A DNA stretch of 52,450 bases, taken from NCBI GenBank assembly GCA_045600905.1, contig JAZRYT010000069.1, forward strand, positions 1-52,450, written 5' to 3'. Positions 16,311 through 22,354 of this stretch are shown here, piece by piece. The notes under the pieces are model-generated. The model was not told where the DNA came from and ran no database searches. It saw nothing but the letters and a program-made list of their open reading frames with translations. The stretch is from Bacteroidales bacterium. Lineage in GTDB: Bacteria; Bacteroidota; Bacteroidia; Bacteroidales; WCHB1-69. A program made the translations under genes and the position numbers. Every line of letters starts with the position of its first letter. Positions within the stretch are counted from its first letter, which is position 1.

Positions 16311-17966
16311 TTAATTCTTAATTTTGCTTACGCTCATCGGTTTGCTGTTCACTGCGCGGCATATTTCATTATCCACGCATAACACAAAGGGCACGTCAGG
16401 TAAGAGCTTTGTCTTCGTGGTAAAACTGACTTTCCCTCCGGCAGGGATGACCAAGCCTTCCGGAACGGGGCAATTCATAATCACGTAATGCTCAAGCAAA
16501 TAGGCCAGCAACAAGGTCGTTGCAAATTCAGGATGGTGGAAGTCGAACGGCACGGAATAGGGATTAGCCATCGTCAAATCCAAAATCAACGTATCATTTG
16601 CAACATCGTACTGATTTACGGTTATTTCAATCCGATTGGTTCCTTGAAAGGAATTGTATTTGCGAACAAAAAACGGCCCATCGCTACCCGCGTCAACCTC
16701 GCAGACACCGGCTATCTTCCATTCTTTCAGATTCTTCCCGATAGCGGAAACCGGCTTTCCCTGCAACTCCTTATCCCACTGCCAAATATCATACTGTGTC
16801 CGCCGTCCATACACAGAACTCAGAACCACGGACGGCCGAGCCGTGTAATAACTGTACAGAGCGGGTTCCTGGAAGGAATTGAGGAATACCACAGGCGTGT
16901 CACCACAATACTGATGAACAGCCTCCATTTTCTGATGCTGTTTAAACGCCCCAACACTCGGGATTGAGAGAACAGGCAGCACAACCCGCGCCAAAAGCAT
17001 CAGCAAGGCAACCGGCAATATGCCATAACGGAGCCACTTGCGCCAACGCAACTCCTGCAACTGATTGGATAGCAATAAAATCATTGGTATGGAAGCAGTC
17101 GTCGTCCAATGCGGCTCAGCGTGACCTTTCAAGGTCATCAACCAGAAAAAGAAGACGAAACCTACCATTGTATAAAGACAGAATTTTTCAAAAAGATTTT
17201 CCGTCTTACGCTTTTTCCAACAGAAAAAGAGCGCCAATCCAAGGCATACAGGATTGAAAACCATCAGCTGGTTGGGCCAATATTCCAACAGATATTTAAT
17301 GGAAAATCCTTCATTTCTTCCCATCAAATGATATTGCATACTTGGGAATCCGTTTCTATATTGCCAAAGAAGGTGAGGGACAAACAACAGTGCCGCCAGC
17401 AGTCCGGCGATCCATATTTTAGGGTCTTTTAACACTTTCCAATTGGACAAAAGAAGACAGGCAAGCACCAAAACCGCCATATATTTGCTGTACAGCATAC
17501 ACGCCAAGACCACCCCCAATCCAAATGCGATGCACCAGGAATTTCCCTCCAAGTATTTTTCATACAGGAAAAAAAATAGCGCAGCAAAAAACAGCAGCGG
17601 AGCGTCGGGCGTGGTAATCACACCGTAGGCAGAAAACATAATCATTGAAAAAGAGACGATGAAAAAGACTTTTACCGAATGGGAATCTTCCTCTTTCATT
17701 GACAATGTTCTCCATAACAGCCAGACTGTGGCGCCGTGCAACAAGACGGTCAGGAATCGGATGGATAGAGAGCCCTTGAATAACAGGCTGCTAAAAAACG
17801 TTAACAGCGCCACCATCGGCGGATGATCATAATAGCCCCAATCCAAAAACTTTCCATACATCGCATAATAAACCTCGTCCGGATGAACGGGAACGGAGAT
17901 TGCCACAAACAAGTCGAGCAACATCCACGCAATCAGCAAAATATAGAATAGTCTCTTTGATTTCAT
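16311..17966 (-). CDS. ArnT/PMT-like integral membrane glycosyltransferase (GT-C fold)
   Basis: DEVYY, GYYDHPPMVA, TPDAPLLFF, SKY motifs, many TMs; start MKSKRLF after TAGTTTTG promoter motif. Confidence 0.85.
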   Translation of the reverse strand: MKSKRLFYILLIAWMLLDLFVAISVPVHPDEVYYAMYGKFLDWGYYDHPPMVALLTFFSSLLFKGSLSIRFLTVLLHGATVWLLWRTLSMKEEDSHSVKVFFIVSFSMIMFSAYGVITTPDAPLLFFAALFFFLYEKYLEGNSWCIAFGLGVVLACMLYSKYMAVLVLACLLLSNWKVLKDPKIWIAGLLAALLFVPHLLWQYRNGFPSMQYHLMGRNEGFSIKYLLEYWPNQLMVFNPVCLGLALFFCWKKRKTENLFEKFCLYTMVGFVFFFWLMTLKGHAEPHWTTTASIPMILLLSNQLQELRWRKWLRYGILPVALLMLLARVVLPVLSIPSVGAFKQHQKMEAVHQYCGDTPVVFLNSFQEPALYSYYTARPSVVLSSVYGRRTQYDIWQWDKELQGKPVSAIGKNLKEWKIAGVCEVDAGSDGPFFVRKYNSFQGTNRIEITVNQYDVANDTLILDLTMANPYSVPFDFHHPEFATTLLLAYLLEHYVIMNCPVPEGLVIPAGGKVSFTTKTKLLPDVPFVLCVDNEICRAVNSKPMSVSKIKN

Positions 17967-18037
17967 AACGGCCGCAAAACTACATAAAAAACATTGACTT
18001 TGGCTGCCAGCTTTCAGCCGTTTAAACTTGGAACATG

Positions 18038-18094
18038 TTGTAGAGACGGTGCAGTAAAATAAATTGTAGAGACGGTGCAGTGCACCGTCTCTAC
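18038..18094. repeat. GTAG-type REP element: half copy plus a perfect palindrome with 14-bp arms
   Basis: ttgtagagacggtgcagt (18038-18055) and gtagagacggtgca-g-tgcaccgtctctac (18066-18094). Confidence 0.8.
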
Positions 18095-18178
18095 GGTGAG
18101 ATTGCAAATGGATTGGGGAATCAGGAAATATTTTGGCCCGTTTTTTTATTTTTGCATCTTCATTAAAAAACAGCAAAA

Positions 18179-19480
18179 ATGCAGGCGCAACAATTTTGGA
18201 CACGGACCTATAAGCAGAACATCGAAAAGATGATCGGGGTGTGCTATCGCTATGTTGGCGACCGTGCTCTTGCGGAAGACCTTGCGCACGAGGCGTTTTT
18301 GACCGCCATCGAAAAATCGAGAGACTACCGAAAATTGGGGAGTTTTGAAGGTTGGCTGATGAAAATAAACCTCAATACGGCTTTGCAGTATCTGCGCCAA
18401 AAGAGGAATTTTCTCCCTATCGAGGAGATGAACATCCAAGACAAGACGAATGAGGATCCGCTTCCCGGTCGAGACTTCACCCGGCAGGAAATTTTGGATG
18501 CCGTGTGCCGTCTCCCCGACCACAATCGAGCCGTCTTCAATCTGTATGTTTTTGAAAATCAAAGCCATAATCAAATAGCCAAAACATTAAACATCGGCGA
18601 GCGAAGTTCGAAGCGATATTTGTCGGAGGCGCGGACGCAACTCCAACAGATGCTGAACAAAGTCGCCCGCGACAAAAGATCACGCATTATGATACTTCTA
18701 CCCCTTATTCATAAACGGTCGCACGCCGTTGACACAATATGCCGACAGCATCTTCGGAACTTGTCCTTTGCGCCCACCACCGCGTCGCCCCTTGCAGGCA
18801 TTGACTGGGCAGGGATGCCTGCGCCCAACGGCTGGATACAGCTTTCCAACGCAAGCGTGCCTGTTTCGGCAGGCGTGGCCACCTGCGCCATCGGGAGCGC
18901 AGTCGTCTGGCAAGTTGCCCAACAGGAGCCGCAAGCGCCCACGCACGACCCCGCGCCAAATCCCGCAGAAACTGTCATTGACAGCACGGATGCGCCCACA
19001 GAAGACACCATCGCCTTCGTCGCACCGAACCAGCCAACGACGGAAACGAACGCCGTCCCAATGGATTCCTTTGAAACAACAATGCCTATAGAAACCGCAC
19101 CTGCCGTCAAAGAAGCGCCCACGCCCCCCGTTAGAACACCCAACTATTTGAAATGGGGGAAAATAACGCGCAACGGTTTTGTCGGACTAAAAGATGAAAA
19201 AGGACGCATCGTAGTCTATCCGAGATACTCCGACATCGGGCCGTTCGATGAATACCGCAAAGGTTGGGCATTGGTCAACACGTTCGGATTTTTGGGTTTC
19301 ATTGACTCCACCGGCAAAGAGGTCGTAACGCCGCAGTACGACGAAATCGGTCCGTTTGACGCCAAGCGCGAAGGGCTGGCCTACGTCCGCAAAGGGAAAT
19401 ACTACGGATATCTCAACACCAACGGCAAAGAAGTCGAGCCCGTTGCCGTTCCGGTAAATAACAAGTTCAACAACCGATAA
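18179..19480 (+). CDS. ECF RNA polymerase sigma factor with a large C-terminal extension (putative TM helix, Pro/Thr linker, WG repeats)
   Basis: Region 2 (AEDLAHEAF, SFEGWLMKI..N) and region 4 (LPDHNRAVFNL..SHNQIAKTLNI) in aa 1-160; GFIDSTGKEVVTPQYDEIGPF-type WG repeats in aa ~330-422. Confidence 0.85.
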   Translation: MQAQQFWTRTYKQNIEKMIGVCYRYVGDRALAEDLAHEAFLTAIEKSRDYRKLGSFEGWLMKINLNTALQYLRQKRNFLPIEEMNIQDKTNEDPLPGRDFTRQEILDAVCRLPDHNRAVFNLYVFENQSHNQIAKTLNIGERSSKRYLSEARTQLQQMLNKVARDKRSRIMILLPLIHKRSHAVDTICRQHLRNLSFAPTTASPLAGIDWAGMPAPNGWIQLSNASVPVSAGVATCAIGSAVVWQVAQQEPQAPTHDPAPNPAETVIDSTDAPTEDTIAFVAPNQPTTETNAVPMDSFETTMPIETAPAVKEAPTPPVRTPNYLKWGKITRNGFVGLKDEKGRIVVYPRYSDIGPFDEYRKGWALVNTFGFLGFIDSTGKEVVTPQYDEIGPFDAKREGLAYVRKGKYYGYLNTNGKEVEPVAVPVNNKFNNR

Positions 19481-19492
19481 AATTCAAGCACT

Positions 19493-20614
19493 ATGAAGAA
19501 AATCATCCTATTATCCATCATTTTCAGCTGCGTATGTATGGGTTACGCGCAAAAAAGAATTGTCGGAAACAAAGACATTGTAACCAAGACTCAAACTCTC
19601 GCACCATTTTCCGTTTTCAGAGGTGGTTGTTCTGCCGAGATAAGAATCATCAAAAGCGTAGAAAACAAGGCCATAATCTCAATAGACGAAAATCTTATCG
19701 AATACTATCACTTGGAAGTGATTAACGACGAATTGAAACTGTATAAATTCCCGGAGGTCAATTGCACACACACACAATTCACTATTACCATTTACACACC
19801 GCATATTAAAGAATTGGATCTTTCAGGCTCCGGAAACAAATACGTTTCAGGTTTCTCAGAAAGAAATTTCGCTCTGAAGCAGCAAGGAAGTGGCAATTTG
19901 GTAATGGAAAACATTATCGCAACAAATGACTTGACATTCCATCACACAGGGTCTGGCAGCGCACTCTTAACAAATACCACGGGCACGAATCTCTCTCTTG
20001 AACATAGTGGGAGCGGCAATTTGGTAATGGAAAACATTATCGCAACAAATGACTTGACTTTACATCACACAGGGTCTGGCAGCGTACTCTTAACAAATAC
20101 CACAAGCACGAATTTCGCTCTTGAACATAGTGGGAGCGGAAACACTGATTTGGCAGACATCATCATCAAGAATGACTTAACCACAAAATTCACAGGCTCT
20201 GGAAGTTTGAAAATCAGAAATTACGACATTCACAATCTAACCATCGACAAATCCGGTTCCGGAGACATCCATATTTCCAATCCGAATTATTCAAAATATA
20301 TGGACAAACTAATGATAGACCATCAAAGCAGCGGGAACATCAGTATAACCAATCTATTAGCCAACAAAACGAACATAAAGATCCACAGTTCCGGCAATGT
20401 CAATCTTTCTGGGAAGACTACAGAAATCATTATGAACAGTAATAGCACCGGCAATATCAACGCCAGGGACTTGGAAGCGCAAATTGCTCACATCGAAAAT
20501 GCCAGTGTTGGGAATGTACAGCTTACCGTCACCAAAAAAGCTTACATCTCTGATAAAGGAGCTATTGGAAAAATTAAAATATTTGGGGAGGGAGAGGTTT
20601 CTTACACAGAATAA
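19493..20614 (+). CDS. Exported DUF2807 / head GIN domain beta-helix protein
   Basis: Signal peptide, IVGNKDIVTK, DENL, repeated GSG/SSG turns, ARDLEAQ..GNV..V C-terminal motif. Confidence 0.85.
   Translation: MKKIILLSIIFSCVCMGYAQKRIVGNKDIVTKTQTLAPFSVFRGGCSAEIRIIKSVENKAIISIDENLIEYYHLEVINDELKLYKFPEVNCTHTQFTITIYTPHIKELDLSGSGNKYVSGFSERNFALKQQGSGNLVMENIIATNDLTFHHTGSGSALLTNTTGTNLSLEHSGSGNLVMENIIATNDLTLHHTGSGSVLLTNTTSTNFALEHSGSGNTDLADIIIKNDLTTKFTGSGSLKIRNYDIHNLTIDKSGSGDIHISNPNYSKYMDKLMIDHQSSGNISITNLLANKTNIKIHSSGNVNLSGKTTEIIMNSNSTGNINARDLEAQIAHIENASVGNVQLTVTKKAYISDKGAIGKIKIFGEGEVSYTE
19892..20139 (+). repeat. Intragenic 123-bp (41-aa) near-identical tandem duplication
   Basis: Units start at 19892 and 20015 (GNLVMENIIATNDLT.HHTGSGS.LLTNTT.TN..LEHSGS). 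Confidence 0.95.
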
Positions 20615-20816
20615 TCATTCCCCTTTAATTGAAGATATCACCCCACTTTCTCTTAACGCCAAATATTCGGAAAAGAAAAACACTAATAATTTTAACGACA
20701 GAAAAGGCGAAGTTCCAACAAACTTTTATTCTATCTTCTACAAGTTAATCCTCCACTTGATTCCGAAACTTCCACTGCTTAATTCATCAAATTTCACCTT
20801 GTCAAAATTTATCATT

Positions 20817-21713
20817 ATGAAGAAAATCATCCTATTATCCTTCATTTTCTGTAGCATATATTTGGGCTACGGACAAGAAAAAATTATCGGCAGTAAAGAA
20901 AAAGCCACTGTGACACGAGATCTTGCTTCGTTTACGGCCGTTTACTGCGATATGATTGCCGACTTGCAAATCATTCAAAGCCCTGAATCCAAAGTTATGA
21001 TTACCGCCAGCGAAAATATCATTGAATATGTCAATTCGAAAATTTCAGCCGGGAGACTCTCCCTTACGTTAAAAGACAGCCTTAACTATTCCAATTGCGG
21101 CTGCAATATTAAAATCTACACACCTCATCTTAACGACATTAATTTAGAAAGCAATTGTACGACTACATCAATCTCAGGATTCACAGAGGAGGACCTCAGT
21201 ATCAAGTTATGTGGTGATTTGAACTTATCGGACATCACCATAACAAACAATCTCGCCATTACAACCATTGGCAAAATAAAAATCAAAGACTTTAGCGCCA
21301 AAAATATAACTATAGATATTAAAGGCATTTGTAAAAACTATATATCAAAGCAAAAAAAATCTTCCCTTATTGAGAATCTTTCCATAAATATTCGAGGAGC
21401 AGTAAGTCTCAATATGTTAGATCTGAATGCTGACAAAATCTTCATCAACTCAGAAACCTATCGTGACGTTCAACTTGCAGGAAGAGCAAACGAGATCACA
21501 CTAAGGAACAGAGGACGTGAGCCTTTCAATGCAAAAGATCTTAAAACGAGAATAGCCTACATTGACAACACAGGGCATGGGGAAGTGAAGCTTACCGTCA
21601 CAGACACGGCCATTGTTTCCCCAACCACAGAAGACCTTGGGGACGGATTGACCATCGGATGGAATGACAAAATTAAAATCTATGGAGACGGAAGAGTTAT
21701 TAAGAAAAACTAA
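20817..21713 (+). CDS. Second exported DUF2807 / head GIN domain protein (paralog)
   Basis: Start MKKIILLS with the first 24 nt identical to the upstream paralog; IYTPH and NAKDLKT..G.V.LTVT motifs. Confidence 0.8.
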   Translation: MKKIILLSFIFCSIYLGYGQEKIIGSKEKATVTRDLASFTAVYCDMIADLQIIQSPESKVMITASENIIEYVNSKISAGRLSLTLKDSLNYSNCGCNIKIYTPHLNDINLESNCTTTSISGFTEEDLSIKLCGDLNLSDITITNNLAITTIGKIKIKDFSAKNITIDIKGICKNYISKQKKSSLIENLSINIRGAVSLNMLDLNADKIFINSETYRDVQLAGRANEITLRNRGREPFNAKDLKTRIAYIDNTGHGEVKLTVTDTAIVSPTTEDLGDGLTIGWNDKIKIYGDGRVIKKN

Positions 21714-21737
21714 TCCTTCCTGTTGCAAACTGCCTTT

Positions 21738-21938
21738 TTAAGACAGCTGCAAATAATCAGCAGGCAGAACAGCAAATGCGCAACCTCTATATTCATTTTC
21801 TATAGCATTGTTGACCAACATAACTATCTGTCCTGAAAGCACTCGACTAAGAATTTGAAATGGGGCTGAGACCGCTCTGTTCTTCGTCAACAAAGCAGAA
21901 ACTAACACATTAGTATCTAAGACAATACTATCTTTCAT
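21738..21938 (-). pseudogene. Truncated PIN-domain toxin
   Basis: IVLDTNVLVSALL...IENEY N-terminus; only 66 aa, lacks the later PIN acidic residues. Confidence 0.75.
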
Positions 21939-21939
21939 C

Positions 21940-22218
21940 TTATTTGCCTTTTCGATATGAAGATATCTCAGCCTCGATATCCTCCTCTGTCAGTTCGGCA
22001 GTTCCATTAAGCTGAGCAGCATTGTTTAGAGCATATAAAGCTTCCAATCCGGCATTGTTCTCTTCCCTCAATTCAAAAGGGAGTCCGCCCACAGCCAATG
22101 ATTTTTTAAAAAAAGCCCGCACGGCAGTAGGAAGGTCCAAACCCAACCTATCAAATAAAGCGGCTGCCTGATTCCTTAAATTTTCATCCATTCGGATTTG
22201 CAATATAGAAGATGACAT
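21940..22218 (-). CDS. RelB/DinJ family antitoxin
   Basis: LQIRMDENLRNQAAALFDRLGLDLPTAVRAF...GGLPFEL. Confidence 0.9.
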   Translation of the reverse strand: MSSSILQIRMDENLRNQAAALFDRLGLDLPTAVRAFFKKSLAVGGLPFELREENNAGLEALYALNNAAQLNGTAELTEEDIEAEISSYRKGK

Positions 22219-22354
22219 TTGTATTGGTTTTTATATATTTTCTGATGCAAAAGTAATACATTTTTTTGAATTACCAACTTTTTTTATTTTTTTATCCCAA
22301 CACAATACGAACTTTATGGGAAGTCAACGGGCAGGAACGGAACATTTTTCGTCC

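Follow-up and report, generated by a model that had tools for sequence, protein, structure and literature searches.

Can one polypeptide hold an extracytoplasmic function (ECF) sigma factor, its inhibitor, a membrane anchor and a sensor beyond the membrane? The question is raised by a 433-aa open reading frame (ORF) of an uncultured, rumen-type Bacteroidales bacterium (GTDB lineage WCHB1-69; GenBank assembly GCA_045600905.1), at 18179 to 19480 of a 52,450-nucleotide window, the whole stretch analysed here (contig JAZRYT010000069.1, positions 1 to 52,450 of the forward strand). ECF sigma factors rank third among the main routes by which bacteria transduce signals, and Bacteroidota is the phylum with the most ECFs per genome; to our knowledge, very few of these are understood. 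From a computational analysis we regard the product, with moderate confidence, as a self-inhibited, membrane-tethered sigma/anti-sigma hybrid that would be released by proteolysis and autoregulated together with partners carrying the DUF2807 (Toastrack, or GIN) domain.

An earlier note, made from the sequence of this stretch, had described a single ORF with sigma regions 2 and 4, an anti-sigma-like segment, an uncharged stretch, a stalk and WG repeats, in that order. Pfam, hydropathy and AlphaFold2 (AF2; confidence as predicted local distance difference test, pLDDT) agree with this anatomy:

18179..19480, + strand: whole ORF, sigma/anti-sigma-like hybrid, 433 aa, ATG start
18209..18406, + strand: sigma-70 region 2, aa 11-76 (Pfam PF04542, Sigma70_r2, E = 1.2e-13; AF2 pLDDT >90)
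18482..18643, + strand: sigma-70 region 4, aa 102-155 (Pfam PF08281, Sigma70_r4_2, E = 5.3e-10)
18677..18718, + strand: fusion-specific connector, aa 167-180 (basic residues around a short hydrophobic patch that includes Met171)
18719..18844, + strand: anti-sigma-like juxtamembrane segment, aa 181-222 (from conservation, hhalign and complex prediction)
18851..18919, + strand: probable single transmembrane helix, aa 225-247 (Ala/Gly/Thr/Val-rich, weakly hydrophobic)
18920..19144, + strand: Pro/Thr/Glu-rich disordered stalk, aa 248-322 (low pLDDT, variable among orthologues)
19145..19453, + strand: WG_beta_rep domain, aa 323-425 (Pfam PF14903, E = 2.2e-18; 12 beta strands)

To judge from its domain content, the N-terminal stretch of 165 residues is a complete ECF sigma factor. 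Pfam matches only regions 2 and 4 of sigma-70, with regions 1 and 3 absent, as in ECF (group 4) sigma factors, and the ECF model TIGR02937 (sigma70-ECF; NCBIfam) is passed with 71 bits against a cut-off of 42.9, confirming the earlier placement of complete regions 2 and 4 within aa 1-160. The best subfamily model, the Bacteroidetes-type TIGR02985, gave 75.5 bits, under its cut-off of 126.4. In the full-length AF2 model, based on an alignment of 84 relatives (mean pLDDT 79.6), the sigma domain is confident, and a Foldseek search returned 27 matches at E ≤1e-3, every one listed being an ECF sigma factor.

The fusion is intact well beyond the source genome. A database search with the full protein gave 355 homologues at E ≤1e-3 among 3603 candidates; all 120 homologues listed are 428-489 aa long with a query coverage of 97-100%, and all contain region 2, region 4 (r4_2) and WG, so that at least 120 full-length relatives share the architecture. 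Their identity to the window protein is 47-53%, except for one at 96%. Searching with the extension only (aa 161-433) returned 82 proteins, 74 of which carry both sigma domains. The 80 loci kept from species-representative genomes belong to uncultured Bacteroidales/Bacteroidetes of herbivore guts, plus one oral sample. All 34 complete WG-type genomic loci are one uninterrupted ORF (locus L030, truncated by a contig end, is outside this number). Contigs from three DNA studies span the ORF with 0 gaps (X1, 18052-19318; X4, 18067-19700; X9, 18497-19302), their indels being confined to an upstream repeat, and the 30 listed strain variants within the ORF comprise 11 synonymous, 19 missense and 0 nonsense changes. 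Across 25 orthologues, sequence conservation continues through the sigma/extension junction.

These data bear on the simplest alternative, that the fusion is an artefact or has recently decayed, through an assembly error or the loss of a stop codon between two genes. The source genome is a draft of 190 contigs, and one of its paralogues (contig C140) is broken. The earlier note had named a stop or frameshift near aa 165-171 as the sign of such an origin; none occurs in the 34 loci, the bridging contigs or the strain variants. With the frame kept in 120 listed homologues, 34/34 genomic orthologues and contigs of three independent DNA studies, and with conservation running through the junction, this alternative is refuted as far as sequence data allow, and its probability is negligible. 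One RNA library (a single run) yielded contigs at 18322-18685 and 18656-18786 and left the rest of the gene uncovered; DNA contamination could account for them, and they are no proof of transcription.

The extension has a separately encoded relative. A family-level genome search found stand-alone sigma factors, 171-188 aa long and sharing 48-53% identity with aa 1-166. Eight of their loci were fetched, and the six that extend far enough to show the operon end have the same order: the sigma gene, 2-4 small lipoprotein genes, and a gene for a 182-201-aa single-pass membrane protein. This partner protein opens with a short conserved N-terminus, continues with one hydrophobic helix and a stalk, and carries the same C-terminal beta-motif as the short fused forms described below. 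Alignment of the fused family with six partner proteins by hhalign gave a probability of 98.0% (E = 2.6e-13, 150 columns), pairing aa 181-344 of the window protein (P0001) with residues 3-181 of the partner, and BLASTP matched one fused paralogue to one partner end to end (E = 6e-9). Among the 276 ORFs of the eight loci, a profile of the anti-sigma-like segment, hereafter the clamp, matched only partner N-termini, in five loci. In this split system (loci L081-L087, in other genomes of the same genus), the small lipoproteins between both halves are paralogous to one another and have no Pfam match.

Within the clamp, A183, D185, C188, L192, L205, W210, P214 and W219 are invariant across 25 orthologues; D185 is at least 90% conserved over 84 diverse fused relatives, and C188 is conserved only inside the WG subfamily. 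The connector at aa 167-180 consists of K/R, about seven hydrophobic residues including Met171 and a Pro, then K/R again; it is conserved in fused forms and not present in stand-alone partners, whose N-terminus aligns from about aa 178-181. Its residues 173-176 have pLDDT <50 in the AF2 model. On this homology we take the extension to correspond, in fused form, to a membrane protein that has a gene of its own in sigma operons, the place of an anti-sigma factor. The resemblance of aa ~184-210 to an anti-sigma N-terminus, proposed earlier, thus holds as conservation and as homology to the N-terminus of a separate membrane protein, although the segment matches no curated anti-sigma family. Two related proposals fail. 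The partner in split relatives is not encoded by the next gene, coming instead after the 2-4 lipoprotein genes, and Met171 is not the relic start of a second gene, the partner start aligning near aa 178, about seven residues later. A small membrane protein beside the nearest conventional sigma gene of the source genome (contig C38) was considered as a further relative and rejected (BLASTP E = 0.022; only the Trp, the helix and the stalk are colinear), and an Atlas look-alike search with aa 163-250 was uninformative (best score 0.79).

Structure prediction places the clamp on the sigma factor. With sigma (aa 1-165) and the segment (aa 166-224) modelled as two chains, each with an 84-row alignment, the complex scored 0.82, compared with 0.18 for the best of three controls; the mark used is reached by 58/80 solved complexes and 2/110 mismatched pairs, a calibration that is only rough here since a custom alignment was used. 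Contact agreement between the runs is 77% or higher, with a partner pLDDT of 65 or more. Confident contacts join residues 182-216 of the segment to sigma2 (residues 2-48) and sigma4 (residues 100-125 and 152-159), with D185 and C188 contacting sigma4 and 195-198 contacting sigma2. The segment is confidently placed and mostly non-helical when modelled with sigma (aa ~181-220, pLDDT 85-97) and scores lower without it (pLDDT 61-80); it contains about one helix and forms no helical bundle. The modelled sigma fits compact, anti-sigma-bound structures (SigW/RsiW, RpoE/NepR, CnrH/CnrY) with a root-mean-square deviation of 6-8 Å and a TM-score of 0.54-0.59, vs. 26-27 Å for RNA-polymerase-bound ECF structures. 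Residues 182-216 are thereby predicted to lie between sigma2 and sigma4, as a clamp on both.

The sole Kyte–Doolittle (KD) peak after the sigma domain, 1.66 at aa 225-243, is borderline for a membrane helix. It lies in the uncharged stretch at aa ~225-247 to which the earlier note had drawn attention. WG-type orthologues behave alike: in the 108/121 that were scored (13 lacking the anchor motif were dropped), the median peak is 1.65 (range 1.49-2.04), with values of at least 1.6 in 99/108, and the aligned stretch is uncharged in 107/108. At the equivalent position in 68 fused representatives, peaks are mostly 1.6-3.3 and mostly located at about aa 225-245, and many fused paralogues, like the stand-alone partners, are strongly hydrophobic along the aligned segment. 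The strength of this peak in relatives supports a membrane helix at the weaker aligned stretch of the window protein, and aa 225-247 is a probable single transmembrane helix, which AF2 models at aa 230-247 (pLDDT 54-65).

Beyond it, the Pro/Thr/Glu-rich stalk reported at aa ~250-320 is disordered in the AF2 model (pLDDT 40-56 over aa 251-310) and varies in length and sequence among orthologues. The WG_beta_rep domain scored 66.4 bits against a gathering cut-off of 25.6, in two stretches of which 373-409 is the better, and AF2 models aa 323-425 as a confident beta domain (pLDDT 89-95) of 12 strands in three units, which makes the earlier count of about three WG repeats fair. The domain resembles about three propeller blades: beta-propeller pieces were among the rows examined in a VIA fold search (best Z 6.4, no match at Z ≥8), and Foldseek gave middling matches to propeller pieces (E = 0.01-0.03), from which no specific relative can be named. 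A Protein Data Bank sequence search with the domain found nothing under E = 0.27.

Directly downstream lie two genes for DUF2807 proteins, both of which pass the PF10988 gathering cut-off of 24.2 bits:

19493..20614, + strand: DUF2807 (Toastrack/GIN) protein 1, 373 aa (PF10988, E = 1.7e-39, 135.9 bits)
20826..21713, + strand: DUF2807 (Toastrack/GIN) protein 2, 295 aa from the ATG at 20826 (PF10988, E = 1.8e-22, 80.4 bits)

The first begins 12 nt past the stop codon of the sigma gene, and both proteins have signal-peptide-like N-termini. Whether DUF2807 genes follow the homologues, a check suggested by the earlier note, was answered without exception: 33 of the 34 WG-type loci have downstream sequence, and in all 33 a DUF2807 homologue is the next gene (31 by blastp, L007 and L020 by tblastn). 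Six of the loci examined (L003, L005, L006, L009, L018 and L037) have a second copy. In five relatives (L032, L034, L035, L036 and P0159), DUF2807 is located within the same ORF, after the stalk and in place of WG; by the Rosetta-stone argument, such fusion suggests that WG and DUF2807 act together, on the same side of the membrane. A hybrid gene at L033 has its WG domain cut after the first repeat and joined to DUF2807-like sequence, and looks like an intermediate between the form with WG and a separate DUF2807 gene and the DUF2807-fused form.

DUF2807 is one of three Pfam models (DUF4097, DUF2154 and DUF2807) unified as Toastrack, a beta-helix domain repeatedly tied to Lia/PSP membrane-stress signalling, sometimes with an operonic sigma factor (bioRxiv 10.1101/2020.09.24.301986). 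The window Toastracks differ in that they pair with an ECF hybrid, not with LiaFSR or PspC. They are probably periplasmic, given their signal peptides or, in the fused relatives, their position after the membrane segment of the sigma fusion.

Upstream of the operon is a feature that resembles an ECF promoter:

18134..18158, + strand: two-block ECF-type promoter-like motif (TGGCCC at 18134-18139, a 15-nt T-rich spacer, CATC at 18155-18158)

This motif begins 45 nt before the ATG. The pattern TGGC[CA]C-N15-C[GA]T[CT] begins 39-46 nt before the start codon of 38/38 genes examined, namely the window gene, 33 WG-type loci and four DUF2807-fused loci (L015, which has no upstream sequence, L030 and L033 being left out); the sequence further upstream is unrelated among them. 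Other subfamilies have the T-rich spacer and the -10-like block in common with these genes, but their -35-like block reads GTAACC, TTGCCC or GCAACC. Such sharing and variation would be expected of autoregulated ECF paralogues whose region 4 has diverged. A consensus scan of 17900-22300 for sigma-70 promoters and terminators gave no more matches than shuffled sequence. The earlier note had the sigma factor driving the two downstream GIN genes; the tight linkage (33/33, and the fusions) stands, and the GIN genes would most simply be co-transcribed with the sigma gene from the conserved ECF-like promoter, as one operon and not as separate targets.

Genome-wide, a loose scan for the promoter pattern found 49 matches, compared with about 31 expected from composition, and only three full-motif-like sites: those of the window gene, the broken paralogue and a transglutaminase-like gene. 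The last (contig C64:1160-2327, locus L089) has the motif 55 nt upstream of a 370-aa secreted protein with a Transglut_core match of 26.9 bits against a cut-off of 23, and is a candidate regulon member.

Together these results suggest the following mechanism. In the resting state, aa ~181-222 would pack between sigma2 and sigma4 and hold the sigma factor closed and incompetent for RNA polymerase, while aa ~225-247 would cross the inner membrane and the disordered stalk would carry the small propeller-like WG domain into the periplasm, to work with the co-transcribed, secreted DUF2807 (Toastrack) protein or proteins. An event on the envelope side would then trigger removal of the extension, most plausibly by site-1 cleavage, RseP-type intramembrane cleavage and cytoplasmic degradation of the leftover clamp. 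A site-2 protease of the RseP type (Peptidase_M50) is encoded in the source genome, which speaks to feasibility only. The freed sigma factor would read TGGCCC-N15-C(G/A)TC before its own operon, giving positive feedback and more Toastrack, and would act at a few other sites. Of this picture, the computations above show the architecture and its conservation, the homology of the extension and how it is predicted to dock within the chain, as well as the link to the operon and the presence of a promoter-like motif.

Several points weigh against this mechanism. How the protein sits in the membrane, that it is inhibited, that proteolysis frees it, what cue it answers and which sigma factor uses the motif are all inferences here. 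The clamp had no match to curated class I anti-sigma families (zf-HC2/ZAS, RskA, the FecR N-terminal domain and similar) when the window protein, 40 fused relatives and the stand-alone partner were searched with Pfam. On its own, the clamp profile is borderline against the split-operon partners (E = 0.013-0.12 at genome-size Z), and against the 15,846 ORFs of the source genome the profile (columns of aa 163-226) found only six fused paralogues, the next match being at E = 0.069. The docking score and the compact AF2 shape may in part reproduce solved structures, among which sigma/anti-sigma complexes are numerous. The helix is marginal, with its KD peak of 1.66 and low pLDDT, and is non-helical in the extension-only model. 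Finally, the promoter-like motif overlaps a TAnnTTTG-like element, TAnnTTTG being the Bacteroides housekeeping -7 box, and it might be read by the primary sigma factor. As for the self-inhibited, membrane-tethered sigma factor of the earlier note, the single conserved chain and the predicted clamp speak for it and the only marginally hydrophobic helix of this protein speaks against it.

Three other accounts of the gene have to be weighed. An extension that regulates without proteolysis, either by a conformational change as proposed for ECF41/ECF42-type extensions or with the sigma factor active while tethered, is in our view unlikely. In its favour, no evidence speaks for cleavage of the window protein, and the ~60-aa tether with its flexible connector could allow the sigma factor some reach. 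Against it, the predicted contacts cover both sigma2 and sigma4, whose contacted surfaces are needed for binding core RNA polymerase, and homology of the extension to a separate membrane protein of sigma operons is the classical anti-sigma arrangement. Published precedent points both ways: C-terminal extensions act by conformational change or protein interaction in other ECF groups (PMC8999054, PMC7826278), but IutY, reported as the one membrane-bound hybrid studied by experiment, depends on regulated intramembrane proteolysis (PMC8999054).

Less probable still is a soluble cytoplasmic ECF sigma factor with a C-terminal WG sensor, in which the hydrophobic stretch would not span the membrane and the DUF2807 genes would be mere co-transcribed cargo. 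The low KD peak, the low AF2 confidence and the missing helix of the extension-only model would suit it, as would the argument that most Toastrack domains are intracellular (bioRxiv 10.1101/2020.09.24.301986). However, the aligned segment is strongly hydrophobic in the relatives named above and uncharged in 107/108 orthologues, and a basic cytoplasmic segment precedes it; both window DUF2807 proteins start like secreted ones, and in the DUF2807-fused relatives this domain comes after the hydrophobic segment in the same chain. It is very improbable, finally, that the gene has two products, an internal start at Met171 also giving an anti-sigma-like membrane protein on its own, so that a conventional sigma/anti-sigma pair would operate next to the fusion. 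Met171 is kept in at least 90% of WG-type orthologues, and two of the 82 extension homologues (P0151 and P0152) are called as starting exactly at its equivalent. Yet these two lie on contigs of 2.0-2.4 kb whose upstream frame was not inspected, the start of the stand-alone partner aligns ~7 residues after Met171, and Met171 sits inside a conserved hydrophobic patch also found in paralogues without Met there.

The proposed sigma/anti-sigma hybrid belongs to a known kind of switch; other examples are IutY, ECF52 and Dma3, whose fusion to a sigma factor is a prediction. IutY of Pseudomonas putida (ECF243), a hybrid released by Prc (site-1) and RseP (site-2), likewise joins an ECF sigma factor to a membrane-bound anti-sigma part in one chain and offers a mechanistic model for proteolytic release (PMC8999054). 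It is of FecI/FecR type, works in cell-surface signalling with a TonB-dependent receptor and comes from another phylum, whereas the window protein has no detected FecR domain. ECF48, ECF52 and ECF53 have been proposed to work like IutY (PMC8999054). ECF52 (SCO4117, Streptomyces coelicolor) has a sigma factor, an anti-sigma-like segment, a helix, a Pro-rich stalk and an extracytoplasmic binding domain in the same order (PMC5826349, PMC8999054); this actinobacterial protein has a zinc-finger (ZAS) anti-sigma segment and a carbohydrate-binding domain, whereas no H-x3-C-x2-C is visible in the window protein.

The nearest likeness within the phylum is Dma3 (BT_2778) of Bacteroides thetaiotaomicron, whose sigma-fused architecture has been reported as a prediction (PMC10927553; bioRxiv 10.1101/2025.09.27.678952): one chain would run from an N-terminal sigma factor through a short cytoplasmic segment and one inner-membrane helix into a periplasmic region that is long and disordered. 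The window protein shares, in silico only, the Dma-type combination of a short sigma-binding cytoplasmic segment, an inner-membrane helix and a long disordered region. What defines Dma proteins is a C-terminal outer-membrane beta-barrel of eight strands (OMP_b-brl_2), whereas the window protein has no OMP match and ends in a soluble WG_beta_rep domain with secreted DUF2807 partners; several of its paralogues are followed immediately by a gene of OMP_b-brl type, and the 600-aa paralogue described below apparently reads through into one. In the two-protein systems Dma1/Das1 and Reo/EcfO of Bacteroides, too, a very short N-terminus in the cytoplasm precedes a single helix and a linker that is long and disordered, and the N-terminal 40 aa of Dma1 suffice for binding its sigma factor, a length close to the ~40 aa of the window clamp; they differ in being two separate proteins, in belonging to group ECF21 and in their outer-membrane barrel (PMC10927553). 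The statement of the earlier note that no ECF of this architecture had been characterised in Bacteroidetes therefore needs amending, as a sigma-fused anti-sigma protein was already predicted there; for the WG/DUF2807 version it stands, no description having been found in the literature searched (subscription journals and supplements were outside its scope) and WG_beta_rep papers not dealing with sigma factors. New here are the WG/Toastrack periplasmic end, a clamp without a curated model, and the size and modularity of a lineage-specific expansion, though a group with such an extension may already be among the ECF groups described in PMC7826278.

Because proteolysis-released sigma/anti-sigma hybrids are already known, the system matters less than a new principle would. 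The family is a compact switch, with sensor, membrane anchor, inhibitor and output in one chain, a recognisable cognate promoter and many naturally insulated variants. If the proposed mechanism is true, it would define a new anti-sigma module of ~40 residues outside the curated models, give WG repeat and periplasmic Toastrack (DUF2807) domains their first functional context, and supply parts for orthogonal gene circuits in gut Bacteroidales. It would also extend the Dma idea (PMC10927553) from outer-membrane barrels to soluble periplasmic sensors.

The source genome (3.13 Mb, 190 contigs) contains five further genes of the same build, so that the fused family accounts for six of its 23 sigma70-ECF matches above the cut-off. 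Three are short fused forms of 348-399 aa (contigs C14, C111 and C44). Another is the broken WG-type paralogue (C140:6324-7645, locus L091), in which a 140-aa ORF breaks off within sigma region 4 and the match is taken up again by a 266-aa ORF from the Met171 equivalent onwards, with one TGA and one TAG inside the match; it retains the promoter-like motif and is either a pseudogene or an assembly error. The fifth, a 600-aa paralogue (C8:3569-5371, locus L090), has the look of a short fused form (~358 aa in most relatives) that reads through into the next gene: an internal signal-peptide-like stretch lies at aa ~415-435, and an Atlas comparison of the C-terminal part points to DUF3575/TraO outer-membrane barrel clusters (0.95, no more than a lead). 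Only one other such form was found, of 606 aa. The 600-aa protein would reproduce a Dma3-type architecture; a search for a tie to BT_2778/Dma3 gave 23 matches, none of them Bacteroides-named, and the likeness considered here is one of architecture.

An exhaustive profile-free search gave 248 cluster representatives at E ≤1e-30. From the best 150 of these, the 68 fused representatives were kept that have at least 280 aa and a region-2 motif (AEDLAH-like) in the first 120 residues. Their C-terminal ends comprise WG repeats (2 to 10), DUF2807, a weak TonB_C-like domain, a 450-500-aa class without Pfam match and, most often, a short beta-strand motif. This conserved terminal motif (...DT..x..DTVY[VL]) is found in short fused forms (L041-L080) and stand-alone partners (L081-L086). 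A same-strand ORF follows short-form or partner genes in 22/26 loci, most of these ORFs beginning signal-peptide-like, and 15 of them have the mature N-terminus DT[IM]Y[VI]; OMP_b-brl or OMP_b-brl_2 matched 5/9 of the following ORFs tested, two above the cut-off. The shared motif could be a sign that the sigma fusion and an outer-membrane barrel interact by strand complementation.

The distribution of the family is narrow. At E ≤1e-40 it was found in 1/200 other genomes sampled across the order and in 51/150 of its own taxonomic family, where the matches fall in 45/53 genomes of its own genus, 6/19 of a second genus and 0/78 of 20 other genera; the second-genus matches examined are DUF2807-fused forms of 629-658 aa. 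In a tree of 56 sigma domains, the WG-type, DUF2807-fused and broken sequences form one clade (Shimodaira–Hasegawa-like approximate likelihood ratio test, SH-aLRT, 99), within which the DUF2807-fused forms nest among the WG forms. Split sigma factors nest inside the fused clade, which favours an origin of the split operons by fission of a fused gene, but forcing the 36 fused rows together cost 19.2 log-likelihood units and was not rejected (approximately unbiased test, p-AU 0.128; the group was named after the tree had been seen).

A wider reading, which we offer tentatively and rather doubt, is that rumen Bacteroidales contain a lineage-specific set of modular, single-chain trans-envelope switches with exchangeable ends and paired secreted partners. 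The common cassette would be an ECF sigma factor, a ~40-aa clamp of an undescribed anti-sigma family, a membrane helix and a disordered stalk. Its ends would be a WG propeller fragment working with Toastrack proteins, as in the window gene; Toastrack fused directly; or a short beta-motif that recurs at the mature N-terminus of the downstream outer-membrane barrel and suggests strand complementation across the periplasm. If so, each subfamily would read its own -35 variant of the shared promoter, giving insulated parallel channels, and the WG domain would sense the state of its Toastrack partner and not a small molecule.

Just upstream of the promoter-like motif lies a palindrome resembling repetitive extragenic palindromic (REP) elements:

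18066..18094, no strand assigned: REP-like perfect palindrome of 28-29 bp, GTAGAGACG-N10-CGTCTCTAC

It is a dispersed repeat, its 9-base core having 198 copies in the source genome, and is not known to belong to the switch. Summed contig depth in three DNA runs is up to ~30-fold higher at 18022-18143. In 20/34 WG-type orthologues the palindrome is inserted in frame, always read V-E-T-x4-S-L, in the sigma2-sigma4 linker and/or the periplasmic stalk, with up to three copies per gene; it looks like an element similar to REP sequences or miniature inverted-repeat transposable elements (MITEs) that colonises disordered coding segments.

The operon adjoins a gene for an envelope-modifying enzyme, the divergent upstream gene at 16311-17963 (- strand) encoding a multi-pass PMT_2 glycosyltransferase (ArnT/dolichyl-phosphate-mannose transferase-like, E = 4e-18). 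On the other side, past the second DUF2807 gene, two small ORFs of 92 and 66 aa at 21738-22218 (- strand) look like an antitoxin gene followed by one for a truncated PIN-type toxin.

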